Assembly: GCA_963706025.1 (NCBI GenBank)
Contig: CAVPLM010000005.1
Span: forward strand, 736,001 to 800,000
Length of the DNA stretch: 64,000 nucleotides
DNA from: an uncultured Actinomycetes bacterium
Lineage (GTDB): Bacteria > Actinomycetota > Thermoleophilia > RBG-16-64-13
Direction: 5' to 3'
Position 1 is the first letter of the stretch. Each line of letters starts with the position of its first letter. Of the stretch, positions 2,935-17,903 are shown in pieces. The notes under the pieces are model-generated. The model had not been told where the DNA came from. It did not search any database and worked only from the letters and a program-made list of their open reading frames with translations. A program made the position numbers and the translations under genes.

Positions 2935-4481
2935 CGACCGGGCATCCGGAACCCCTCATCTTCGACAAGAGCGTTCCCGGTCACGGGGGGCTCGATCTTC
3001 CTTCCCCGGGGGTGCCGGCAGCCGACCTTTCTTCTCTCCTCCCGGGGGTACGTCTTCGCCACGACCCTCCCCGCTTGCCGGAAGTGGCCGAGCCTCAGGT
3101 GGTGCGGCACTACACGCGCCTTTCTCAGCTCAACCACTCGGTGGACACCGGCTTCTACCCTCTGGGGTCATGCACCATGAAGCACAACCCCAAACTGAAC
3201 GACGAGCTGGCGGCTCTGCCCGGCTTCGCCCGGCTGCACCCCTATCAGGCCGAAAGCGAGGTCCAGGGGATCCTTCGGTTGATGCACGAGCTGGAAAGAG
3301 CTCTGGTGGAAATCACGGGCATGCATCGGGCGACCCTGCAGCCCGCGGCCGGGGCTCAAGGGGAGCTCGCCGGGATCCTTATGATCAAAGCCTACCACCG
3401 CGACCACGGCGGCTCTCACCGAGATACCGTCATCGTCCCCGATTCCGCCCACGGCACCAATCTGGCCAGCGCTGCGATGGCCGGCTACCGAGTGGTGGAG
3501 ATCCCCAGCTCTCCCCAGGGCCTTATCGATCCCGCCGTGCTGCGCAGGAGCCTGTCTGACCGCACCGCCGCTTTGATGCTGACCAATCCCAACACTCTGG
3601 GACTGTTCGAGGAGGACATCCTCGAGATCTCAGGCCTGGCCCACGAGGCCGGCGCCCTCTGCTACTACGATGGGGCCAACCTCAACGCGATCATGGGCAA
3701 GGCCCGCCCGGGCGACATGGGCATGGACGTGGTCCATGTGAATCTGCACAAGACCTTCTCCACTCCCCACGGGGGCGGCGGCCCCGGCTCCGGTCCGGTT
3801 GCAGTCACCGCCCGGCTCGAACCCTACCTGCCGGTCCCGCTGGTGCGCATCTCCCCAGCCGACGAGGCCTATACCCTCGACTACCAACGTCCTCACAGCA
3901 TCGGCCGCATCAAGGGTTTCTACGGCAACGTCGGCGTCCTCATCCGGGCCTATGCCTACCTACTCCGGATGGGCGGGGACGGTCTCGCCCGAGCCAGTGA
4001 GGACGCGGTGCTCAGCGCGAACTACCTTCGTGTCCGACTGCGAGCCAGTTACCAGGTCCCTTACGACCGCATCTGCATGCACGAGTTCGTGCTCTCGGCC
4101 GCGGCCCAGGCAAGACGCGGCGGCACGGCCCGCGACATCGCCAAGCGCATCCTCGACTTCGGCATGCACGCACCCACCATCTATTTCCCCCTGATAGTGC
4201 CGGAAGCCCTCATGGTGGAACCGACCGAGACCGAAGACCTGAGGACTCTGGACACGTTCGTCGAGGTCATGGAACGCATCGACCGCGAGATAGACGAGGA
4301 TCCGGAGATAATCCGCCGGGCCCCGATCTCTACCCCGGTGCGCAGACCGGACGAGACGAGGGCCGCCCGGGAACCCATCCTGCGCTGGGTCCGTCGCGAA
4401 GATCAAGATCCAACTCCACCCCCACCGGCAACGCCTGGATTTGGCGCCGGTCGAGGTTTCGGGGATAATCAAGCGCCATGA
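2931..4481 (+). CDS. gcvPB: Glycine dehydrogenase (decarboxylating) subunit 2
   Basis: FYPLGSCTMK, SAHGTN, YYDGANLNA and PLP-lysine motif NLHKTFSTPHGGGGPG. ATGA overlap with gcvPA. Confidence 0.96.
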   Translation: MTTGHPEPLIFDKSVPGHGGLDLPSPGVPAADLSSLLPGVRLRHDPPRLPEVAEPQVVRHYTRLSQLNHSVDTGFYPLGSCTMKHNPKLNDELAALPGFARLHPYQAESEVQGILRLMHELERALVEITGMHRATLQPAAGAQGELAGILMIKAYHRDHGGSHRDTVIVPDSAHGTNLASAAMAGYRVVEIPSSPQGLIDPAVLRRSLSDRTAALMLTNPNTLGLFEEDILEISGLAHEAGALCYYDGANLNAIMGKARPGDMGMDVVHVNLHKTFSTPHGGGGPGSGPVAVTARLEPYLPVPLVRISPADEAYTLDYQRPHSIGRIKGFYGNVGVLIRAYAYLLRMGGDGLARASEDAVLSANYLRVRLRASYQVPYDRICMHEFVLSAAAQARRGGTARDIAKRILDFGMHAPTIYFPLIVPEALMVEPTETEDLRTLDTFVEVMERIDREIDEDPEIIRRAPISTPVRRPDETRAAREPILRWVRREDQDPTPPPPATPGFGAGRGFGDNQAP

Positions 4482-6549: not shown

Positions 6550-7617
6550 TTACCCGCTGCCGGCGAAGCGCACGTTCAACAAGTATCCCCCGGCTTGATC
6601 GCGGTCGACGAGACGTCCGATGACCGCGGCGGCCGAGGTGTCTCTGGCCGTCAGCGCCTGGACCGCTTCCGCCGTCCTCTCGGACGGCACCGCCAGGACG
6701 AGACCGCCGGACGTCTGGGCATCGGCGCACAGGAGCCTCTGCCAGGATTCCAGCCCCGGCTCGAAGCTGGTCCAGGGCTGCACGTACTCCAGGTTGCGCT
6801 TGGTCCCCCCGGGGATCACGCCTTGTCGCGCCAGTGTCTCCGCTTCAAAGAGCAAGGGTAACCGGTCGTACCAGACTTCCGCCGCCACCCCACTTGCCCG
6901 GCACAACTCACTGAGGTGGCCCAGGAGGCCGAAACCGGTGATATCCGTAAGCGCACGCGCACCACAGGCTCGGGCCACCTCGGCTGCATCGCGATTGAGC
7001 GCCGCCATGGTGGCGGTGGCGGCGGCGATGGCCTCTGCCGAAGCGTTTCCCTGCTTGATGGCGGTCGCGACTACTCCGGTGCCGAGCGGCTTGGTGAGCA
7101 CGAGGACGTCGCCGGGCCTGCCGGCTGCATTGGTCAATTCCTGTCCCGGCTTGATCAAGCCGGTGACGGCCAGCCCATATTTGGGCTCGGGGTCGTCGAT
7201 GGTGTGGCCACCGACGATGGTGGCCTCGGCGAGCCGGGCCGTCTCTGCCCCACCCTGCAGGATCCTCGCCAGGTACTCGAGCGGCAGGACGCCCGATGGG
7301 AAGCAGACGATATTGAGGGCAGTCAGAGGCCGACCACCCATCGCGTAGACGTCGGAGAAGGCGTTGGCGGCGGCGATGCGGCCGAAATCGTAGGGGTCGT
7401 CGACCACCGGTGTGAAGAAATCGACCGTCTGCACCAGGGCGATCTCATCAGTAAGGCGGTAGATGGCCGCATCATCCAGCGTGTCCGCCCCCACCAGAAG
7501 GGCGGGATCTTCCACCCGCGGCAGCATATCCATGACCTGCCCCAAGTCCTTGGGGCCCAGTTTGCAGGCTCAGCCTGAGCCGTGCGAGAGGGTGGTCAGC
7601 CTCGGGACCGCCTCCAT
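6550..7617 (-). CDS. selD: Selenide, water dikinase; selenoprotein (UGA16 = Sec)
   Basis: AAAGGAGGTG RBS, ATG at 7617, MEAVPRLTTLSHGSG-TGA(7572-7570)-ACKLGPKDL, continuing in frame into DDAA, QTVDFFTP, ANAFSDVYAMGG, TDITGFGLLGH and DAQTSGGL. Confidence 0.96.
7539..7556 (-). promoter_or_regulatory. SECIS-like hairpin of selD
   Basis: mRNA GCCCCAA-GGAC-UUGGGGC, starting 14 nt after the UGA, with a G-starting apical loop. Confidence 0.8.
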
Positions 7618-7931: not shown

Positions 7932-8384
7932 ATGACTCATCATGCCACCCGCACCTTGCAGGAATTGGGCTACCGACTGACCCCCCAGCGCACGCTCGTG
8001 TGGGACGTGCTTCGCGAGCACGGAGCCCACATGAGCGCCGAAGATGTCTGCGTCAGAGTTCAGGAGCAGTTCCCCCACATCAACATGTCCACCGTATATC
8101 GCACCCTGGAGCTATTGGTGGACCTCGATCTGGTGAGAGAGACGCATCTCGGTCCCACCCGGCGCTTCTTCGAAGTGGAAGAAGAGATCCCTCACCATCA
8201 CCTGGTCTGCGAGGTATGCGGTCGGGTGACTCACGTGCACGACGAAGACCTGGGAGATCTGAGCGCCCTTCTGCTTCGCGAGCAGGACCACTCGGTCCGA
8301 GAAGTGACGGTGTTCGGCCTTTGCAGCACCTGCCGAATCGACGCGGAAGGAGGAAGCCGGTGCACATCCCCGACGGATTCGTAG
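7932..8384 (+). CDS. Fur-family metalloregulator, Nur-like
   Basis: GYRLTPQR, INMSTVYRTLELL, HHHLVCEVCG, FGLCSTC. First gene of the Ni/Co ECF operon. Confidence 0.9.
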   Translation: MTHHATRTLQELGYRLTPQRTLVWDVLREHGAHMSAEDVCVRVQEQFPHINMSTVYRTLELLVDLDLVRETHLGPTRRFFEVEEEIPHHHLVCEVCGRVTHVHDEDLGDLSALLLREQDHSVREVTVFGLCSTCRIDAEGGSRCTSPTDS

Positions 8385-9424
8385 ACATCCCCACGGCTGT
8401 GGCCACAGGGGTGGTTTCGCTGGGTACGGTGGCCTATGCAGTGCGCAAGACCAGCAAGGACCTCGGCGAGCGGACCATCCCCCTCATGGGCGTGACCGCA
8501 GCCTTCATCTTCGCCGCCCAGATGCTCAACTTCCCGGTGGCCGGGGGCACGAGCGGGCACTTCCTGGGGGCGATGCTTGCGGTCGCGCTCTTGGGGGTGT
8601 GGCCGGCCCCCATAGTGATGACCGTGGTCCTCGTGGTCCAAGCCCTGGGCATGGCAGACGGGGGTATCACGGCGCTGGGAGCCAACGTGTTCAACATGGG
8701 TGTGGTCGCGGTGTTCGTCGGCTACGGGGTCTTTGTTGGACTCAAGAAGATCCTCCCCCGCACCCTCCCCGGCTATCTGGTCTCGGTGGCCGTGGCCTCT
8801 TGGATCTCGGTGGTCGCGGCGTCGGCCGCCGCCTCTGCCGAGCTGGCCATCTCGGGAACCGTGCCGCTGGGCGTGGCTCTCCCCGCGATGGTCTCCGTGC
8901 ACATGGTCATCGCAATCGGTGAGGCCCTGATCACCACCGTGGTGGCAGCCGCGGTCCTTGCCACCCGCCCCGATCTGGTCAAGACCTTCGACCTGCCTCT
9001 CGAGACCGTCCGCCGCACCGCCGGACGGCCGGTCGCCCGTATGAGCGGAAGAGCCCGCTTCTGGTCGTTCGTCGCCGGTGCGGTGGTCGTTGCCGTCGCC
9101 TTAGCGGTGTTCGTCTCTCCGTTCGCTTCCGGCTCTCCAGACGGCCTGGAGAAGGTGGCGGCGGACAGGGGCTTCGAAACCGCGGCGGCCGAGGAACCGA
9201 CGTGGGGCCTCTCTCCGCTCGGCGACTACCAGCTCCCCGGAGTCGGCAACGAGAAGGTGGCCACGGCGATCGCCGGGTTGTTGGGCACGGTCGTCCTTTT
9301 CGCCCTTGTCGTCCTCGCGGGGCGCGCATTGAGCGGCCGTCGACTCACCCCGGCCGTGCAGCCTGCGGGAACGAACAGAGGTTCCGGCAACGCGCCGCCC
9401 CCTGATCCCTCCGGCAAGCCCTAG
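8360..9424 (+). CDS. Ni/Co ECF transporter substrate component, NikM/CbiM fused to a PDGLE (NikN) domain
   Basis: GTG at 8360 gives N-terminal MHIPDG; also AFIFAAQMLNFP, GTSGH and C-terminal SPDGLEKVA. Confidence 0.92.
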   Translation: MHIPDGFVDIPTAVATGVVSLGTVAYAVRKTSKDLGERTIPLMGVTAAFIFAAQMLNFPVAGGTSGHFLGAMLAVALLGVWPAPIVMTVVLVVQALGMADGGITALGANVFNMGVVAVFVGYGVFVGLKKILPRTLPGYLVSVAVASWISVVAASAAASAELAISGTVPLGVALPAMVSVHMVIAIGEALITTVVAAAVLATRPDLVKTFDLPLETVRRTAGRPVARMSGRARFWSFVAGAVVVAVALAVFVSPFASGSPDGLEKVAADRGFETAAAEEPTWGLSPLGDYQLPGVGNEKVATAIAGLLGTVVLFALVVLAGRALSGRRLTPAVQPAGTNRGSGNAPPPDPSGKP

Positions 9425-9464
9425 GGCGTGCCCTCGCCGGATAGCCGGATAGGATGACCACAAG

Positions 9465-10243
9465 ATGGCGCTGACCGGGGTCGACTCCCTACTCACCGAG
9501 ACCCGCGCAGTGGCAAAGCCGGCTGCACCGGCTCGATGCACGGGCCAAGATCCTGGGATTCATCGGGTTCACGGTGGTGGTGGTCACGACGCCGGCTCTG
9601 CCCGTATGGCCCTTCGTGCTCTACGCCGGGATCCTGTTCTTCCTCATCGGCGTCTCGCGTCTCCCGCTCAAGCATGTGCTCGGGCGCGCCCTCGTGGTGC
9701 TCCCCTTCATCCTGGTCGTTGCCATCTTCTTGCCTTTCTTCCATCAGACCGGAGGCGGCGGCTACAGCCTGGGCGGCATGCGGGTGACCGGCGAAGGCCT
9801 GCTCGTTCTGTGGAACGTGGGAGCGAAAGCCGTCCTGGGCGCACTCAGCATGATCGTGCTCGGTTCGACCACCACTTTCGCCGAGATGGTCTCGGGTTTC
9901 GAGCGCTTGAAGACGCCCAAGATCTTCGTCCTCATCGTGAGTTTCATGTACCGGTACAGCTTCGTGTTCATCGAGGAACTGGGGCGCATGCGGCGCGCTA
10001 TGACTGCCCGCAACTACCGAGCACGTTGGCTATGGAACGTGCCCACCCTGGGCTACATGCTGAGCGCCCTTTTTCTGCGCAGCTACAGCCGCGGGGAGCG
10101 GGTGTACGTAGCCATGCTCAGCCGTGGCTACGAGGGTACGGTGAGACTGCTCGAGGGGAGCCGGTTCGGAGCGGTCGACGCCGTCTTCCTCGGCGGCCTC
10201 TCTGCTGGCCGTGGTCTCGATCCGCGCGCTCTCAGCGCTGTGA
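9465..10243 (+). CDS. cbiQ: Ni/Co ECF transporter T component (CbiQ/NikQ); frameshifts ~9505 and ~10200
   Basis: LHRLDARAKI, FMYRY..., FLRSYSRGERVYVAMLSRGY. Natural end LLAVVSIRALSAL-TGA overlaps the GTG of cbiO. Confidence 0.85.
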
Positions 10244-11061
10244 AGAGCGCCCTGAGTCCGAAGCTGCAAAGCCTGACCGGCAGGCCGTTCCCCGAAGGAC
10301 AGCCGCCGGCCGTGGAGGCCGAAGACCTCCATTTCGCCTATCCAGACGGCACTGAGGTCTTGCGGGGGGTGGGATTCACCATCCGGCAGGGCGAGTCGGT
10401 GGCCATCATCGGCCCCAACGGGGCGGGCAAGACCACTCTCCTCCTCCACCTGAACGGTATCCTCCGCGGCACGGGAAGCCTCCGCATATTCGGCCTAGCC
10501 GTCGAGGACAAGAACCTGCGCGAGATACGCCGCAAGGTAGGCGTAGTCTTCCAGGATCCTGAGGACCAGCTGTTCCTCACCAGCGTGGCCCAGGATGTGG
10601 CGTTCGGACCGGCCAACATGGGCCTAGAGAAAGACGAGATCGCCCTCCGGGTCAAAGAGGCGCTCGCTGCGGTGGGCATGCAGGGGTATGCAGACCGTCC
10701 CGCCCACCATCTTTCGTTCGGCCAGAAGAAGCGTGTCGCCACCGCGACCGTCCTGGCCATGCGTCCGGAGATCCTTGTGCTGGACGAACCTTCGTCCAAC
10801 CTGGACCCCAAGTCCCGGCGTCAGCTCATTCGCATCCTGCAAGACCTGCCGGTCACCAAGATCATAGTCACCCACGACCTTCCGGTGGCCTACGAGCTGT
10901 GCGACCGGGCGCTGATCTTGGCGGAGGGGCGGATCATGGCCGATGGACCCACAGAAGACATACTGCTCGACAAGGCCCTCCTCGCGGCTCACGATCTGGA
11001 GCTGCCCTACGGTTTCGTCCCACCCCGGTTGTCAGCTCATGGGCTCCGTGGGCGGCTGTAG
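10240..11061 (+). CDS. cbiO: Ni/Co ECF transporter ATPase (CbiO/NikO)
   Basis: GPNGAGKTT, VFQDPEDQLF, LSFGQKKR, LDEP. Confidence 0.92.
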   Translation: MKSALSPKLQSLTGRPFPEGQPPAVEAEDLHFAYPDGTEVLRGVGFTIRQGESVAIIGPNGAGKTTLLLHLNGILRGTGSLRIFGLAVEDKNLREIRRKVGVVFQDPEDQLFLTSVAQDVAFGPANMGLEKDEIALRVKEALAAVGMQGYADRPAHHLSFGQKKRVATATVLAMRPEILVLDEPSSNLDPKSRRQLIRILQDLPVTKIIVTHDLPVAYELCDRALILAEGRIMADGPTEDILLDKALLAAHDLELPYGFVPPRLSAHGLRGRL

Positions 11062-11284: not shown

Positions 11285-11488
11285 TCAGCGGTCGCCGCGG
11301 TCGGCGATCTGTTCGCGATACAGGTCGGTGTTGTACATCACGCATTCACTGTTCACGCAGTACCACACCCGGTAGGTGCTGCACTCGCCCGTCGAGCGAC
11401 TGACGCCTGTGCCGGTGCGCTCCGCTTCCTCGACCCGATCGGCGAGGGGCTTGCTGCAATTGATGCAGGTCTTGACCTCGTCTACCAC
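11285..11488 (-). CDS. Small Cys-rich, Zn-ribbon-like hypothetical protein (67 aa)
   Basis: AAGGGGAG RBS, GTG start; CINC...WYCVNSEC; fills the gap in a co-directional cluster. Confidence 0.65.
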   Translation of the reverse strand: MVDEVKTCINCSKPLADRVEEAERTGTGVSRSTGECSTYRVWYCVNSECVMYNTDLYREQIADRGDR

Positions 11489-11514
11489 CTGACTCCCCTT
11501 CCCAGATAGCGTGT

Positions 11515-12114
11515 TTACCCTGTGCGCGTGCCCCGTGGCCGCCCCAACCGGCGACCGATGTCCTCGGCTACCGCTCGAGCCTCGGGGTGTTCCAGTATCT
11601 CGCCCTTGGCGTCCACGCCCGGGCACAGCAGATCGCCCGCCGGTGACACCTCCAGCATATGCCAGAAGGTGCGCATCACCAGGCGGCATCCGTCGAAGAC
11701 GTAGTCGAACGAAGTGCCGGAGCAACTCAGGAACGCCCCCAATCTCTCCGGGCGGCCCGGTTCGGTGATGGCTTGCTTCAGCACGTACTTGAGCGCCCAG
11801 AAAGGCTGGCAGCGGTCGATCACCATCTTGGGGACCGCCGGAATGCCCATGGAGTACACCGGGGCGGCCAGTACGATCGAATCGGCGTTCCGCAGTTGCG
11901 GATAGAGCAGATGCATGTCGTCCTTCTGTATGCATACGCCATCGCGCGAGCAGGCGTCGCAGGCCCGGCAGCCGTGAAGATCGAGGTCGCAGAGCCGGAA
12001 CTTGACCACTTCGGCGCCCTCGTCCGCGGCTGCGGCCAGGCACCAGTCGAGAAGGGTCTCAGTGTTCCCGTCACGACGGGCGCTACCCGCCAGACCGAGC
12101 ACGGTCATGGTCAC
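11515..12114 (-). CDS. Iron-sulfur flavoprotein / NADPH-dependent FMN reductase family
   Basis: GSARRDGNT, CRACDAC...CIQKDDM, AAPVY, KMVIDR. Confidence 0.9.
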   Translation of the reverse strand: MTMTVLGLAGSARRDGNTETLLDWCLAAAADEGAEVVKFRLCDLDLHGCRACDACSRDGVCIQKDDMHLLYPQLRNADSIVLAAPVYSMGIPAVPKMVIDRCQPFWALKYVLKQAITEPGRPERLGAFLSCSGTSFDYVFDGCRLVMRTFWHMLEVSPAGDLLCPGVDAKGEILEHPEARAVAEDIGRRLGRPRGTRTG

Positions 12115-12119
12115 CTACT

Positions 12120-13328
12120 CTACTCCCCCGCCGTCTTGACTTTGCGGGCCACCTGCCGGCCCAATTCCACGCATGCTGCCAGCTCGTCCTCGCTGGGCCT
12201 GTACTTGACCTCGATCGGCTCCACCATGTCGAGGCCCATGGCCCTGAGTTCCGCATCGATCTGCTTCACGGCCCCTCCGGCCCACCCACAGGAGCCGTAG
12301 GCTCCGGAGATGCGCTTGCGCGGCCGAAGACCCCGGATGTAGGTGAGGAACTCCCCTACTGTCGGGAACATGTTGTTGTTGAGGGTAGGCGACCCCACCA
12401 GGAAAGCGCGGGACTCGAGGACCATCCGCGCCACCTCCGACCGGGGGTTGCTGCTGAGCCTCGCGACCACGCAGTCCACGCCCTCTTGAGCGACGCCGTC
12501 CGCGATGGCCATGGTCATCTGCTCGGTGGAGTGCCACATGGTGTCGTAGATCAGCGACACCCGCTCCGGCGCCTGGAAGTCGCTCCACCCCGCATAGGCC
12601 TCCACAATGCGAGCCACGTCCTCGGGCCGGCGCCATATGACCCCGTGGCTGGGGCCGATCGCCTCGATCTCCAGACCCAGCTCGCCGATCTTGGCCAGCA
12701 TCTTCTGGATCTGAGTGCCGAATGGCATGAGGATGTTGGCGTAGTACTTACTGGCCTCTTCCATGACCACGCTCAAGTCGACTTCGTCGGCGAAGCGCTT
12801 GGAGGTGGCCAAGTGCTGACCGAAGGCATCGTTCGGCAGAAGGGTCTTGGCCTGCTTCACGTAGGTGAACATGCTGTCCGGCCAGTGCAGCATGGGCGCC
12901 TCGATGAACTGCAGAGTATTGCGACCGAGGGAGACCTCGTCTCCGGTGCCGACCACCTGGATATTCCAACCATCCACGGTCGCGCCCCCGTAGTAGACGG
13001 CAAGCACGTCCTTGGCCCTTTTCGAACAGAAGATCCGCTCGGGGCTCAGCTGCTCCACCAGCCAGGGGATGGCCCCGGAGTGATCGGGCTCCACGTGGTT
13101 GATGATCAGGTAGTCGACTGGGCGGAGGCCGCAGCAGCCGCGCACGCGAGCCAGCACCTCCGGGCCGAAGCCCTCCCGGCATCCGTCGACCAGAGCCACC
13201 TTCTCGTCCAGGATCAGATACGCGTTATAGGTGGTCCCCCGGGGGGTCTCGTAGCCGTGGAAATCACGGACGTTCCAGTCGATGGCACCCGTCCACCATA
13301 TGTCGTCCTTCAGCAGATACCGCTCCAT
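12120..13328 (-). CDS. fprA: Flavodiiron protein (O2/NO reductase)
   Basis: GTTYNAYLI, NHVEPDHSG, LHWPDSM, DAFGQH; flavodoxin part YDTMWHST, GSPTLNN, GWAGGA. Confidence 0.95.
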   Translation of the reverse strand: MERYLLKDDIWWTGAIDWNVRDFHGYETPRGTTYNAYLILDEKVALVDGCREGFGPEVLARVRGCCGLRPVDYLIINHVEPDHSGAIPWLVEQLSPERIFCSKRAKDVLAVYYGGATVDGWNIQVVGTGDEVSLGRNTLQFIEAPMLHWPDSMFTYVKQAKTLLPNDAFGQHLATSKRFADEVDLSVVMEEASKYYANILMPFGTQIQKMLAKIGELGLEIEAIGPSHGVIWRRPEDVARIVEAYAGWSDFQAPERVSLIYDTMWHSTEQMTMAIADGVAQEGVDCVVARLSSNPRSEVARMVLESRAFLVGSPTLNNNMFPTVGEFLTYIRGLRPRKRISGAYGSCGWAGGAVKQIDAELRAMGLDMVEPIEVKYRPSEDELAACVELGRQVARKVKTAGE

Positions 13329-13336
13329 TCACGCTC

Positions 13337-13549
13337 CTACTCGGTCACGCCTTCGTCGCAATAGTAGCCTTTGGTCAGCCCATACTCGGGCCAGAGCGGA
13401 CAGTCGCCGCACGCGCAGCCCCGCCGGCGCACAGATCCGAGGCTCTTGCCCCTGGCGCAGTAGAAGTCCAGGTCGTCCTGGGGTTTTGAAGGGCACTCCC
13501 CGCAGATGCATTTCGCCATGTTCTCTTCTGTGTCCGGCACCTTGCCCAC
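13337..13549 (-). CDS. DUF2769-like Cys-rich small protein
   Basis: GAGGAGG RBS; CICGECPS...FYCARGKS...GCACGDCP...YYC. Confidence 0.8.
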   Translation of the reverse strand: MGKVPDTEENMAKCICGECPSKPQDDLDFYCARGKSLGSVRRRGCACGDCPLWPEYGLTKGYYCDEGVTE

Positions 13550-13587
13550 TATCGCCTCCTCTTCTCGAAGCCGCGGTCTAGTCTGGC

Positions 13588-13613
13588 CTGCCCGCTACGG
13601 CTCTTTCGTAAAC
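13588..13613 (-). promoter_or_regulatory. Putative SigB/SigF-type promoter
   Basis: Minus strand GTTT-N16-GGGCAG upstream of DUF2769-fprA. Confidence 0.45.
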
Positions 13614-13664
13614 CTTCCTGCACGTTTCGACCGGCGCCTTCGGCCGGCCGCAAACCTGGGACAT

Positions 13665-14651
13665 TCAAACTCGAAGTCGCCTGCCCAGGACAAGCTGGGC
13701 TCCGGTCGTCTCCAGGTCCAGGACCTCGATCTCGACAAAACCGGCCGCCGTAAGCCAATCACGGTACTGTTCCTCAGTCCAGACCCCACCCTCCTCGGTC
13801 GCCTGAAGCATGTTCACCGCGAACCGGGCCGCCCGAGGGCTCCGTCCCCACACGTGATCCTGGATGGCGATCGTCCCCCCAGGGAGAAGGATCGAAAAGA
13901 CCTCCTGGGTCACGCGCCCGTTCGTCACCGGGCCGTAGATGTGTAGGACGTTGCCCAGATACACCAGGTCGAACGGGCCGACGGGAAGGGATTGCGTGAA
14001 GTCCCCCCCCACCAGGGCGATATCACTCCCCTCGTCGCCCAGGAACTCGCGGGCAAGGGGGAGCACGTTCTCCCGGTCGAACAACGTGGCCCGCACCCCA
14101 CATCGGGAGAAGTGCCGGGCCACGTGGCCAACGGCGCCCCCCACATCCAGCATGGTGCGGGCCGGACCAGAGTAGGCCAGACACCTCTCGACTATCTCGT
14201 CGAGCACGGCCGGGTCGCGCTCCCCCATCGCCCCCACCAGGGTGCGGACGTCGCGTTGGGCAGGATCGCGAGGAAGAGGCCGCCCCGTGCGGATGACCTC
14301 GGGCAGCTCGAGCCAGCCCCGCAGCTTGTTCACCTGGTGCATCAGGCCGAACCGCTCCGATTCCGGACCCTCGTCCACAAGATGCGCTCTCCCCAGCGCC
14401 GATAACCGATAGAGGGCGCCCCCGTCGCCAGGGTCCTCCGGAGCGCCTCCGAGCCGCTCGACGACGCCCTCCCCCGCCAGAGCCTCGAGCACGATTCGAG
14501 TCGCCCGAGGATGTGCTTCCGCTCTCTGGGCCGCGGCCTCGGCCGTCAAAGCTTCGCCCGTCGCCAAGGCGTCGATCAGACCGGAGCGCAGGGCCCCAGC
14601 GAGCAACAGCAGCCGCTCCACCGCTGCTCCATCTACCAGCGAGTTCTTCAT
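13665..14651 (-). CDS. SAM-dependent methyltransferase (O-MT family 2, N-terminal dimerisation domain)
   Basis: MLDVGGAVG, LFDR, VGGDF, DLVYLGNVLHIYG, LLPGG. ATG at 14651 overlaps the upstream stop (ATGA). Confidence 0.88.
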   Translation of the reverse strand: MKNSLVDGAAVERLLLLAGALRSGLIDALATGEALTAEAAAQRAEAHPRATRIVLEALAGEGVVERLGGAPEDPGDGGALYRLSALGRAHLVDEGPESERFGLMHQVNKLRGWLELPEVIRTGRPLPRDPAQRDVRTLVGAMGERDPAVLDEIVERCLAYSGPARTMLDVGGAVGHVARHFSRCGVRATLFDRENVLPLAREFLGDEGSDIALVGGDFTQSLPVGPFDLVYLGNVLHIYGPVTNGRVTQEVFSILLPGGTIAIQDHVWGRSPRAARFAVNMLQATEEGGVWTEEQYRDWLTAAGFVEIEVLDLETTGAQLVLGRRLRV

Positions 14652-15868
14652 GACTTCTCCAAGGGGAAGCCGGCCGCCTTCCATTCGCCCACACCACCGG
14701 CAAAATCCCGCACGTTCGTGAAACCCAACTGTCGCAGCTTATCAGCTGCGATAGCGCTGGCTTCTCAGGTGAAGGCGTCGCAGTAGAGGACGATGGGCTC
14801 GTCCACCTTGAACCGCTGCCGGGCCTCGCGGGCCAGACCCCTGAAGTCCATCCACTCGGACCCGGGTAGATGCCCTGCCCGCCAGTGCTTCTCACCCAGC
14901 ACGTCGACAAGGCGGAAATGCTCCTGTCCATCCATCAATCCCCGAAGATCCTGGACCGTGATCGTACCGACGCTCGGTCGGCCGGCCTCGGGATCGTAGA
15001 AGACCATGTAGGCGGCGGCGCTGTAGTATCCGGCCTTTCGGAAGATGCGCCGCCGGCCGGGCTCAGCCGCATCGATAACCGCGGCCGGCCGGCTACCTTC
15101 TCTCCAAACAGCTTCGGTGCACCGGCCAAGCGCCCAGGCCAGGTCGTCCTCGCCTGTGTGCGCGACGGCCAGATCGAGTAGCTCGTGCGTCCCGTCTCCT
15201 CCGTCAAGCCGAGCGATCACGGCAACAGGATGCCCGTCCTGCAGCAGCGCCCAGCTGCGCCCCTGGCGGGCCAAGGTATCGAGTTCGGCGACGATCGAGG
15301 CCTGGTCGGCCTTCGAGTGGCTATGCGATCCGGGCTCGTGCTCGTGCTCACCGCCGGCACGTTCCAGCAACTCCCTAAGACCAGGCAGGTGCTCGGGGCC
15401 AAGCTCGACGACCACAACCCCCGCGGGAGCCTGTGCCGCGGCTTCGCCCGCGATCTCACCCGGCTCCTCGGGTAGCATGACCAAAGCAGCCGCCTCCACC
15501 TCGTTTCCCCTAGCCAGCAACGTGGCGTTTAGCCGGCAGTCGTCGGTGCGGACCAGGTAGGCGGTGGGACGCAGGCGCTCCCTGACCAGATCGAGCACGT
15601 CCTCGTAGCGGGTTTGGTGAGCGGCCGTCAGGTACAACTCGACCACAGTAATGTGCGTGTGCCCGCTATGCGGCCTCTCGACGGCCAAGACGTAGCCCAA
15701 GTCCTGCTGTGGCCCTTCGGCTCCGCCGGCCTCTTGGACCAAGTGAGCCGCCGCCTCCCGGCTCAAGCGAGAGTAGAACTCGGGTACGACCGCCAACGAA
15801 GATCCGCGCTGTCTCTCTTCGCGCAGGCTCGCGATCCGTTCTGGATCGACCTGAGTCAGCTCCATCAT
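14648..15868 (-). CDS. Tandem GNAT-like + rhodanese fusion; predicted selenoprotein (C-x4-U)
   Basis: The ORF track stops at TGA 14767-14765 after VLYCDAFT. Read-through gives U-EASAIAADKLRQLGFTNVRDFAGGVGEWKAAGFPLEKS*, which completes the rhodanese fold. A SECIS-like hairpin follows the UGA. Confidence 0.88.
14732..14751 (-). promoter_or_regulatory. SECIS-like hairpin of the rhodanese selenoprotein
   Basis: mRNA UCGCAGCU-GAUA-AGCUGCGA: a perfect 8-bp stem starting 14 nt after the UGA, with a G-starting loop. Confidence 0.8.
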
Positions 15869-16007
15869 CTACTTCCCTGGCGGACGACGAACGAGAGCAT
15901 GGCCATCTCCTCGTTACCGATCGCCGCGGCGATCGGCGGGTGTTGCTGGACCACCCCGTGGACGAACGCGCTGGTCTTCCCTTTCCCGTAGCACTAGAAT
16001 CCCACGC

Positions 16008-16436
16008 ATGTGGGTGAGTGTACACGCCTTGTCCGGTCTGACGCTGGGGGCCTTGGCGCCGCTGGGAATGGTCCTGACGGTCGTTTGCGCTCTCGTGCTG
16101 CACCTGCTCCTGGACCTGGTGCCGCACTGGGACTATACGGGACACCGCCTCCGCACCTTGTGGGCGTTTCTGGATGTAGCCGTTTCGATCGCCGCGGTCG
16201 TGACGCTCGCCCTCGTTCTGGATCTGCCCGGCCGGGCCGTCGTGGCCGCTATCGTCTCCGCTCTCCCCGACCTCGACGTGTTCGATGCGGTCCTACCCGG
16301 TTCGAAGCATCGGCGTTGGTTTCCCAGTCACTGGCGAGGATTTCCTCATGGCAGGGCAAGTCCCCTGGTAGGCATCCTCCTGCAGGCGGTCGTCGCCCTG
16401 GGTGCTATCGTCATATTGGTCGTGTCGGCCGAGTGA
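16008..16436 (+). CDS. Hypothetical membrane protein, possibly metal-binding hydrolase-like
   Basis: Hydrophobic helices with His/Asp motifs (VHALSG, LHLLLDLVPHWD, LPDLD, FPH). TAGAAT -10 lies just upstream, suggesting a leaderless mRNA. Confidence 0.7.
   Translation: MWVSVHALSGLTLGALAPLGMVLTVVCALVLHLLLDLVPHWDYTGHRLRTLWAFLDVAVSIAAVVTLALVLDLPGRAVVAAIVSALPDLDVFDAVLPGSKHRRWFPSHWRGFPHGRASPLVGILLQAVVALGAIVILVVSAE

Positions 16437-17903
<1,467 letters not shown>

Follow-up and report, generated by a model that had tools for sequence, protein, structure and literature searches.

Does the TGA in the middle of a rhodanese gene end that gene, or is it read as selenocysteine (Sec), with translation running on to the start codon of the methyltransferase gene behind it? 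The question is raised by two genes on the minus strand of a 64,000-nucleotide (nt) stretch of DNA, hereafter the window, from an uncultured Thermoleophilia bacterium of the Actinomycetota (assembly GCA_963706025.1, contig CAVPLM010000005.1, positions 736,001 to 800,000). The first, gene A, encodes a rhodanese domain behind a large N-terminal module, and the second, gene B, encodes an S-adenosylmethionine (SAM) methyltransferase. A first-pass annotation of the sequence had proposed a new system, in which a Sec-containing rhodanese is coupled in translation to a methyltransferase acting on sulfur, selenium or a metalloid, or tailoring a small molecule. In our analysis the Sec-rhodanese, the overlap of the two genes and their redox context stood up, but the methylation of chalcogens or metalloids and a strict co-conservation of the pair did not. 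The reading that we favour, and think probable, is that the Sec-rhodanese fusion and a methyltransferase of the ASMT/MfnG type head an oxygen- and nitric oxide (NO)-stress operon, with the rhodanese as an accessory and the coupling only partial. The features that define the pair are as follows.

14648..15868, minus strand: gene A with Sec read-through, a predicted 406-residue selenoprotein made of a tandem GNAT-fold module and a rhodanese domain (stop TGA 14650-14648 included)
15868..14765, minus strand: gene A open reading frame (ORF) under translation table 11, 367 residues, ending at TGA 14767-14765
14765..14767, minus strand: UGA predicted to be decoded as Sec, residue 368 (TGA in relatives, Cys homologues, Sec machinery)
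14732..14751, minus strand: hairpin UCGCAGCU-GAUA-AGCUGCGA, resembling a selenocysteine insertion sequence (SECIS) (fold z = -2.67, relatives)
14975..15868, minus strand: tandem GNAT-like fold, residues 1-298 (structure matches; no Pfam match)
14672..14956, minus strand: rhodanese domain, residues 305-399, with the loop C363-D-A-F-T-U368 (PF00581, 47.1 bits against 22.2)
14648..14651, minus strand: ATGA, the 4-nt stop/start overlap of gene A and gene B (ATG 14651-14649, TGA 14650-14648)
14657..14660, minus strand: GGAG, a Shine-Dalgarno-like motif 5 nt before the gene B ATG, within Leu-Glu codons of gene A
13665..14651, minus strand: gene B, a 328-residue class I SAM methyltransferase of O-methyltransferase family 2 with an N-terminal dimerisation domain (stop included)

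The UGA codon of gene A

Reading through TGA 14767-14765 adds 38 codons (EASAIAADKLRQLGFTNVRDFAGGVGEWKAAGFPLEKS) to gene A and carries the frame to the next TGA at 14650-14648. The Pfam rhodanese model (PF00581) matches residues 305-399 over profile positions 2-102 of 102, nearly its full length, so that the domain spans the first TGA, and the profile is complete only if this codon is read through. That gene A reaches the ATGA overlap only via Sec read-through had been claimed in the first-pass annotation, and the reading frame bears this out.

Among 5.8 billion proteins, there were 97 matches to gene A, most of which cover 89% of the query; their sequences therefore end at the UGA codon. These UGA-truncated relatives carry the public NCBI name 'rhodanese-like domain-containing protein'. 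Five homologues in the database cover 99% of gene A, and these have Cys at the position of residue 368. At the nucleotide level, the codon could be followed in two sets of loci. The first, centred on the rhodanese, consists of 20 loci from species-level genomes, all of them metagenome-assembled genomes (MAGs) of the Thermoleophilia/Gaiellales type; 19 of them have TGA at this codon and the remaining one TGT. The second, centred on the methyltransferase, takes in all 20 of these loci; the codon is TGA in the window and in 32 of 33 loci, and Cys in the other. In the aligned homologues the position is thus invariantly Sec or Cys. Past the hairpin described below, the codons of gene A vary synonymously and the amino acids are kept, which argues that the extension is translated. 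A DNA contig from run X1 that spans 12891-15013 with 34 differences covers the methyltransferase gene, the overlap and the UGA, and none of the 32 differences listed for it falls on the UGA or the overlap.

A bacterial SECIS is expected as a stem-loop soon after the UGA, and gene A has one in that place: the hairpin UCGCNGCU-GAUA-AGCUGCGA, a putative SelB target, begins 13 nt past the UGA (folding z = -2.67). The same hairpin is present in 33 of 33 Sec-form gene A sequences. Its codons +8 to +11 are frozen (GAT in 32/32, AAG in 32/32, CTG in 31/32 and CGA in 32/32), unlike the nearby Arg, Leu, Gly and Val codons, for which four to six synonyms are in use. The sole Cys-form locus encodes the same residues as GAC AAG CTG AGG, with the stem destroyed. 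At Rfam gathering thresholds there were no matches in the window, hairpin included.

The machinery for Sec incorporation is complete in the genome, which has a tRNA-Sec (79.1 bits against a cut-off of 47) and the genes for SelA, SelB and SelD. For comparison, selA was also found in five of five other UGA-form genomes and in the Cys-form genome. With the conserved UGA, the Cys homologues and the hairpin, this upholds the earlier identification of the rhodanese as a Sec protein: by comparative sequence evidence, the minus-strand frame 15868-14648 is one selenoprotein with Sec at residue 368.

The selD gene itself (6550-7617, minus strand) lies about 6 kb from gene A, in agreement with the 6-8 kb given before. 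It is a selenoprotein gene in its own right, with an in-frame TGA at 7570-7572 (MEAVPRLTTLSHGSG-U-ACKLGP); the table-11 ORF begins only past this TGA, and the portion after it scores 363 bits with TIGR00476.

Domains of the gene A protein

The AlphaFold2 model of gene A has a mean predicted local distance difference test (pLDDT) value of 90.8 and a predicted template modelling score (pTM) of 0.77. By Foldseek, residues 1-290 resemble tandem GNATs, with TMt values from 0.71 to 0.50 across 3iwg (0.71), 2wpw, VipF 6wqc, MAB_4324 7q3a and MshD 1ozp (0.60), and the C-terminus resembles the small rhodanese structures 3ilm, 3nhv and 6mxv. An Atlas structure search on P0032, a Cys homologue with 51% identity, gives the same picture of a GNAT module and a rhodanese. 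Gene A also has a variable His-rich linker (residues about 173-186), which is poorly modelled at 177-186.

The N-terminal module has the GNAT fold, but a Pfam scan found no GNAT model on it, and the acetyl-CoA loop is missing. In GNATs this loop carries the motif R/Q-x-x-G-x-G/A. The second repeat of stand-alone relatives (P0111, P0115, P0119 and P0123) keeps a loop of the R-G-x-G type, whereas in the gene A family the second-repeat loop is two residues shorter, with a sequence such as H-T-G-E-D-D. A profile built from the N-domain matched only 31 proteins in 1.84 billion representatives, and its distant stand-alone matches are ordinary tandem GNATs by Pfam. The gene A family has an invariant set of its own, which includes H70, H72, E77, E89, D90, D109, C111, E125, D232 and D266, among others. 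Because the CoA loop is lost, no Pfam GNAT model matches and the invariant set is distinct, the module is, judging from sequence and model, a GNAT-fold domain without the acetyl-CoA loop rather than an acetyltransferase; an active acetyltransferase is doubtful.

The C-terminal domain has a PF00581 match above the gathering score and a Cys as the first residue of the loop, and is a putative sulfurtransferase that would act through a Cys persulfide. This residue, C363, stands at the canonical catalytic position and is invariant in a 20-sequence alignment and kept in at least 90% of 82 sequences. U368 is at the last position of the loop, five residues on. In rhodaneses the side chain at the last loop position adjoins the catalytic sulfur; since this geometry sets U368 beside the sulfur of C363, a Cys363-Sec368 selenenyl-sulfide, or a resolving role for the Sec, is likely by analogy. 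When stand-alone close relatives of the rhodanese domain were sought, only seven fragments of the same family were found.

The junction with gene B

Gene B begins at position 14651 with MKNSLVD, which corresponds to the conserved start M-[KR]-x-S-L-[VI]-D of 17 relatives. The upstream ATG at 14684 is ruled out as its start, since the relatives start at the equivalent of 14651.

The ATGA overlap, a point of the first-pass annotation, is found in the window and in 13 of the 21 other Sec-rhodanese junctions, the remaining eight loci having a gap of 4 to about 85 nt. Behind the one Cys-form rhodanese there is no overlap and a gap of 48 nt. In a deeper clade of the lineage, a small glutaredoxin-like gene, itself in a Sec or a Cys form, stands between the rhodanese and the methyltransferase (see below). 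Here the Sec form overlaps the methyltransferase gene in six loci and is separated from it in one (2 nt), and the Cys form overlaps in none and has a gap in three. L079, with a Sec-glutaredoxin-like gene and an unclear junction, is left out of these counts. In total, the 4-nt overlap is present at 20 of 29 Sec-form junctions versus 0 of 4 Cys-form junctions (naive hypergeometric p ~0.02), a contrast that is a hint only, because the four Cys cases represent three independent events.

Translation of gene B does not appear to depend on the overlap alone. TGGAG precedes the start codon by 5-6 nt in every one of the 14 overlapping junctions, and loci that lack the rhodanese have the same gene B start codon behind GGAGG at the same spacing. 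Gene B is therefore independently translatable. A hairpin hiding its ribosome-binding site was looked for without success: the single-sequence fold is no better than shuffles (z = -0.29), and a 14-sequence consensus fold gives no pairing over the Shine-Dalgarno motif or the AUG and no compensatory changes. Overlaps of 4 nt are also common among other ORF pairs of the window (2934/2931, 4481/4478 and 27819/27816).

As in a coupled pair, the overlap recurs in relatives: the window and 13 loci have it directly, and six more have it with the glutaredoxin-like gene. Coupling itself is predicted from this. It would be ordinary coupling by termination and reinitiation, in which synthesis of the gene B product from this mRNA would depend on Sec decoding in part but not entirely, because gene B keeps a Shine-Dalgarno site of its own. 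Substantial gating of gene B output by selenium is a reasonable idea in view of the precedents cited below, but seems unlikely. The same low probability applies to the idea that the Sec codon serves as a selenium gauge. In that case, only ribosomes that decode UGA368 or, in deeper branches, the glutaredoxin-like UGA would reach the (A/G)TGA and reinitiate, polarity could extend to the oxygen-defence genes downstream, and the overlap would have been selected only behind Sec forms (20/29 versus 0/4).

The methyltransferase

Gene B matches both Pfam models of its family above the cut-off (PF00891, 47.5 bits versus 22.3; PF08100, 26.1 versus 25.6). Together with a glycine-rich SAM motif (DVGGAVG), acidic residues at the expected strands and a conserved His, this places it in O-methyltransferase family 2. 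H105 and H237 are invariant, outgroup included, and the invariant His in the motif GNVxHIY is presumably the catalytic His of the family. The nearest solved sequences are MfnG 7ux6 (E 1.7e-19), which is titled in the PDB as an L- and D-tyrosine O-methyltransferase, 7clf (PigF in Foldseek), ASMT, RedM, MmcR and DnrK. The S-methyltransferase DsyB (7wdw) is a distant relative (E 1.8e-5). The AlphaFold2 model (pLDDT 90.9) gives full-length matches with template modelling (TM) scores of 0.69-0.77; the best is ASMT 4a6d at 0.77, with ASMT, MfnG, RedM and PigF in the range 0.71-0.77 and DnrK at 0.69.

By homology, the most likely substrate is a small aromatic or enolic hydroxyl, which would be O-methylated; methylation of a thiol or selenol is less likely. 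Nothing speaks for the idea that gene B methylates sulfur, selenium or a metalloid; its nearest relatives are O-methyltransferases of aromatic hydroxyls. ArsM enzymes need conserved As(III)-binding cysteines. Gene B has no invariant Cys in its alignment and scores 23.1 bits versus 263 and 15.5 versus 500 with the ArsM models, far under the cut-offs, and an ArsM-like enzyme was rejected. The caution in the first-pass annotation that the substrate cannot be read from sequence still applies, as homology gives only a likely class of chemistry.

Conservation of the pair and loss of the rhodanese

In all 20 rhodanese-centred loci, the methyltransferase gene lies directly downstream on the same strand. 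The reverse does not hold. The methyltransferase-centred set comprises 80 loci, 55 from the lineage and 25 from an outgroup. Upstream of the lineage methyltransferases, the rhodanese is present in 32 loci, reduced to a 3' remnant in two and absent, with enough upstream DNA to tell, in 20; one locus has no upstream flank. Of the 54 lineage loci that are informative, 20 therefore have the methyltransferase but no rhodanese. None of the 25 outgroup loci, which come from Bacillota, Bacteroidota, Sumerlaeota, Chloroflexota and other Actinomycetota and encode methyltransferases 35-44% identical, has a rhodanese in its flanks. On the suggested check of neighbourhood conservation, then, the rhodanese always comes with the methyltransferase, but the methyltransferase often comes without the rhodanese.

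A tree from a quick maximum-likelihood search, covering 70 of the 80 loci and the window (each row one unbroken match of at least 280 residues), puts the lineage in one clade with support 100. This clade has 47 rows, of which 28 have the rhodanese, three a partial one and 16 none. All deep branches carry the rhodanese, and the rows without it form one 12-row group and scattered singles. The tree needs 7-8 rhodanese changes overall, and the starred branches alone force 4-5. Five rhodanese-less genomes were searched for the gene elsewhere and none had it (0/5; positive control 5/5). A selA match was found in two of these five genomes, which are MAGs and may be incomplete. As judged by these comparisons, the pair is ancestral in this Thermoleophilia lineage, and the rhodanese is an accessory, lost repeatedly, with the methyltransferase and redox genes as the stable core. 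The methyltransferase does not need the rhodanese.

Two loci retain pieces of the rhodanese gene. In L046 (about 3390-3500) a 3' remnant from AADKLRQ onward abuts the methyltransferase start, and in L054 (about 3270-3480) roughly the last 70 rhodanese codons remain in the same position, the TGA included. These look like deletion scars that spared the initiation region of the methyltransferase.

The 14 outgroup loci annotated with Pfam have varied neighbours. In two of them (L098:179-7765 and L110:180-7709) the methyltransferase homologue, 37-38% identical, lies between a B12/radical SAM gene and two U32-family genes with UbiE/COQ5, with a sulfate permease beside, a setting that resembles quinone biosynthesis.

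Genes around the pair

Three further genes follow gene B on the same strand, consistent with the earlier description of the pair as lying directly upstream of a redox-stress cluster.

13337..13549, minus strand: DUF2769 protein, Cys-rich, 70 residues (PF10967; 115-nt gap after the methyltransferase gene)
12120..13328, minus strand: flavodiiron protein with metallo-beta-lactamase-like and flavodoxin domains (ODP, Flavodoxin_1; 8-nt gap)
11515..12114, minus strand: NAD(P)H-dependent FMN reductase-like protein, last in the same-strand run (PF03358; 5-nt gap)

The flavodiiron protein also matches flavorubredoxin models, though under their cut-off. The genes for DUF2769, the flavodiiron protein and the FMN reductase stand behind the methyltransferase gene in most lineage loci. 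In the titles and opening parts of abstracts covered, nothing on DUF2769 looked relevant.

In the deeper clade, the flanks are different (ADP-ribosylglycohydrolase, M23 peptidase, MatE), and the order is rhodanese, small gene, methyltransferase, rubrerythrin, DUF2769 (in some loci) and flavodiiron protein. Rubrerythrin genes follow the methyltransferase at L075:4548-5144, L081:4578-5069, L073:4502-5011 and L089:4615-5109, and in L084 (5664-7187) a rubredoxin-reductase-like flavoprotein with a zinc-ribbon tail lies behind the flavodiiron gene. The small gene encodes a glutaredoxin-like protein (PF00462) with the motif P-T-[U/C]-x-D-C, with TGA in seven loci and Cys in three.

Sec forms of the glutaredoxin-like gene: L070:1280-1588, L075:3190-3498, L076:1469-1822, L077, L082:3139-3498, L086:3112-3498 and L089:3127-3498
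Cys forms of the glutaredoxin-like gene: L073, L081 and L083

L079 seems to have the gene as well, with a frameshift. A SECIS-like hairpin, GAAGGUUCUUC, is found only in the Sec forms. Where both ends are unambiguous (eight loci), the glutaredoxin-like start lies 0-3 nt past the rhodanese stop. That a thiol-disulfide partner is encoded between the rhodanese and the methyltransferase speaks for a redox function of the Cys-Sec loop and also for a single transcription unit. One query for the glutaredoxin-like gene in the window's own genome, which is 92% complete, did not find it.

Several other features of the window and of related loci are recorded here for completeness. The 5' leader of gene A contains a perfect 20-nt palindrome, CCGATCGCCGCGGCGATCGG, at 15917-15936, which the aligned leaders of L019, L021 and L024 lack. 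Five rhodanese-less loci (L050, L052, L059, L061 and L066) have the element ATGGGATAAT (TGGGATAAT-like), which resembles an extended -10 box, about 25-30 nt before the gene B start (locus position about 3470); in the window, TGGGATTCT occurs about 125 nt upstream of gene A, near 15995-16003. A divergent ORF for a hydrophobic protein of 142 residues (16008-16436, plus strand; no Pfam or NCBIfam match) adjoins gene A in 7 of 20 loci, and an ORF of this type adjoins the methyltransferase gene in rhodanese-less loci. Convergent to the operon, at 8000-11061 on the plus strand, are genes for CbiM-PDGLE and CbiQ-CbiO, an ECF-type Co/Ni transporter, and the CbiQ-CbiO gene is kept at that place in many related loci. 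Farther away, at 1446-2934 on the plus strand, subunit 1 of the glycine-cleavage P-protein is split in two frames (ORF 1446-2369 matching GDC-P positions 2-179, ORF 2029-2934 matching 189-378), by a frameshift near 1975-2030 or an assembly error.

Proposed function and competing explanations

In the favoured reading, the gene families and their spacing suggest that the same-strand genes form an oxygen/NO-stress operon in a lineage that is anaerobic or microaerophilic. Cys363 and Sec368, with the glutaredoxin-like partner or with cellular thiols, would act as a redox or sulfane-sulfur relay, and the methyltransferase would act on a small nucleophile. The genes for the rhodanese, in places the glutaredoxin-like protein, the methyltransferase, in places rubrerythrin, DUF2769 and the flavodiiron protein are kept together under differing flanking genes.

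Several points weigh against this reading. The stress-operon role is deduced from gene order and family names, and the biochemical functions of gene A and gene B are predictions from sequence and model; the Se-S relay and a hand-over to the methyltransferase are likewise proposals. Much of the synteny, which extends to the flanking GDH and PPDK genes, mirrors the closeness of the genomes. As the methyltransferase also occurs where the rhodanese is lacking, in 20 lineage loci and every outgroup locus, the two may have only their regulation in common and not their chemistry. Support from transcripts is thin. A promoter and terminator scan of 11400-16500 gave none on the minus strand. The RNA library X20, a metatranscriptome, has contigs of about 250 nt on 13780-14028, 14853-15102 and 15704-15900, and two libraries guessed to be RNA have contigs of 151-161 nt on 14646-14806, across the UGA. 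All of these are short, have a depth of 2-4 and may derive from DNA, and they are no proof of transcription; nor do stretches without coverage carry any information.

The explanation that survives best beside this one, although we consider it unlikely, is close to that of the first-pass annotation: the Sec-rhodanese would carry or reduce sulfur, selenium or a metalloid, which would then be methylated by the methyltransferase, an enzyme whose synthesis would depend on selenium. An ancestral, tightly packed pair, the uneven distribution of the overlap (20/29 Sec-form versus 0/4 Cys-form junctions) and selD only 6 kb away would all fit, as would the membership, if distant, of the S-methyltransferase DsyB (7wdw, E 1.8e-5) in the same family. 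There is precedent as well, in the available text of two reports, for strict coupling in most overlapping pairs (PMC6728339) and for selenium control of expression past a Sec codon in fdhF of Treponema primitia (PMC3892789). On the other hand, 20 lineage and 25 outgroup loci keep the methyltransferase gene but lack the rhodanese, the methyltransferase having a GGAGG of its own and an unchanged start codon, and three of five rhodanese-less genomes (MAGs that may be incomplete) gave no selA match. The nearest relatives of gene B all O-methylate aromatic hydroxyls, ArsM is far under the cut-off and no Cys is invariant. The ribosome-binding site is not masked by any conserved RNA structure, and overlaps of 4 nt are frequent among other ORF pairs of the window.

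It is less probable again that the two genes are neighbours without shared chemistry, the methyltransferase tailoring an unrelated molecule, the Sec-rhodanese being an independent redox protein at the head of the operon and the overlap reflecting mere packing. Such an arrangement would account for co-conservation that runs one way, for the repeated, clean disappearance of the rhodanese gene, which left the start region of the methyltransferase in place, and for the varied contexts of the outgroup methyltransferases, in a lineage whose synteny is generally high. It does not account for a rhodanese that is never found without the methyltransferase directly downstream (20/20 rhodanese-centred loci), for an arrangement that persists where the flanks differ, or for stop/start spacings of 0-4 nt across the rhodanese, glutaredoxin-like and methyltransferase genes in deep branches.

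Finally, that the TGA is a nonsense mutation or sequencing error and gene A a pseudogene or a truncated 367-residue protein has next to no chance of being right and is refuted as far as sequence goes: public protein sets do truncate the family at this codon (most of the 97 matches cover 89%), but the TGA recurs at this position in the window and in 32 of 33 loci, which belong to different species-level genomes, the protein sequence downstream is kept despite synonymous change in its codons, the hairpin, Cys homologues and Sec machinery are all present, and the independent DNA contig with 34 differences covers the TGA with none of the 32 listed on it.

Comparison with known systems

A pair of a methyltransferase and a rhodanese-type sulfurtransferase that work on one small molecule reportedly exists in anaerobic ergothioneine synthesis (EanA/EanB), where EanA is said to be a histidine methyltransferase of the EgtD type. 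Gene B matched only family-2 and generic methyltransferase models and the architecture of the rhodanese differs, so an EanAB-like pair was rejected, and the likeness serves as an idea only.

The N-terminal module of gene A shares with the tandem GNATs (3iwg from Colwellia, 2wpw from the clavulanate pathway, 6wqc, 7q3a and 1ozp) the arrangement of two GNAT folds in a chain of about 290 residues. It differs from them in the deleted or replaced acetyl-CoA loop, in its own invariant His, Glu, Asp and Cys residues and in the fusion to a rhodanese. Gene B has the full-length fold of ASMT, MfnG, RedM, PigF and DnrK, dimerisation domain included, at an identity of only 22-28%, and it lies in a probable redox-stress operon, not in a natural-product cluster. 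That genes for a rhodanese, a glutaredoxin-like protein, a methyltransferase, rubrerythrin and a flavodiiron protein recur together suggests that oxygen defence in these anaerobes includes a methylation step yet to be explained.

Rhodaneses with Sec have been described before. A catalogue of 2026 gives, in the text available, five rhodanese-like selenoprotein forms: UxxS, UxxG, CxU (NF041203), UxxG and TsoB with UxxxxU (NF045694) (PMC13188914). As far as that text describes them, these and gene A have in common a rhodanese domain whose active-site loop contains or adjoins the Sec. Gene A falls in neither of the two curated families tested, scoring 40.4 bits against a cut-off of 115 with NF041203 ('LYCAU'), where its motif is C-x4-U and not CxU, and 29.6 bits against 805 with NF045694 (TsoB), over the rhodanese part only. 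In the published outline, TsoB has U at the canonical position and at +5, whereas gene A has Cys at the canonical position and Sec only at +5, the spacing being shared; and TsoB is fused to a DsbD-like part, the gene A rhodanese to a tandem GNAT-fold module of 300 residues. The residues U-E-A-S of gene A fit the bare UxxS motif of the first form, which was compared by this motif alone. A degenerate tandem GNAT joined to a C-x4-U rhodanese is therefore a selenoprotein architecture missing from the curated models tested. Because public annotation truncates the family at the UGA, selenoproteome counts of soil and sediment Actinomycetota are too low.

For the junction, the closest parallels are found in two reports, each taken here from the portion of its text available. 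In Treponema primitia, expression downstream of the Sec codon of fdhF(Sec) is controlled by selenium through translation-coupled transcription (PMC3892789). What is controlled there is the 3' part of the same gene, by way of transcription; here it would be a second cistron, by way of an ATGA overlap. Among overlapping gene pairs, 13 of 14 tested showed coupling, and when a stop was introduced about 99 nt upstream in E. coli, translation of the downstream gene was lost in three of five pairs, reduced in one and unaffected in one (PMC6728339). Those pairs share with gene A and gene B the 4-nt stop/start overlap and the Shine-Dalgarno motif inside the upstream gene. They differ, as that portion presents them, in that translation of gene A must first get past a UGA, 117 nt before the overlap, by reading it as Sec. 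A Sec-dependent frame that overlaps the next start would thus offer a natural case in which Sec decoding could gate a downstream cistron.

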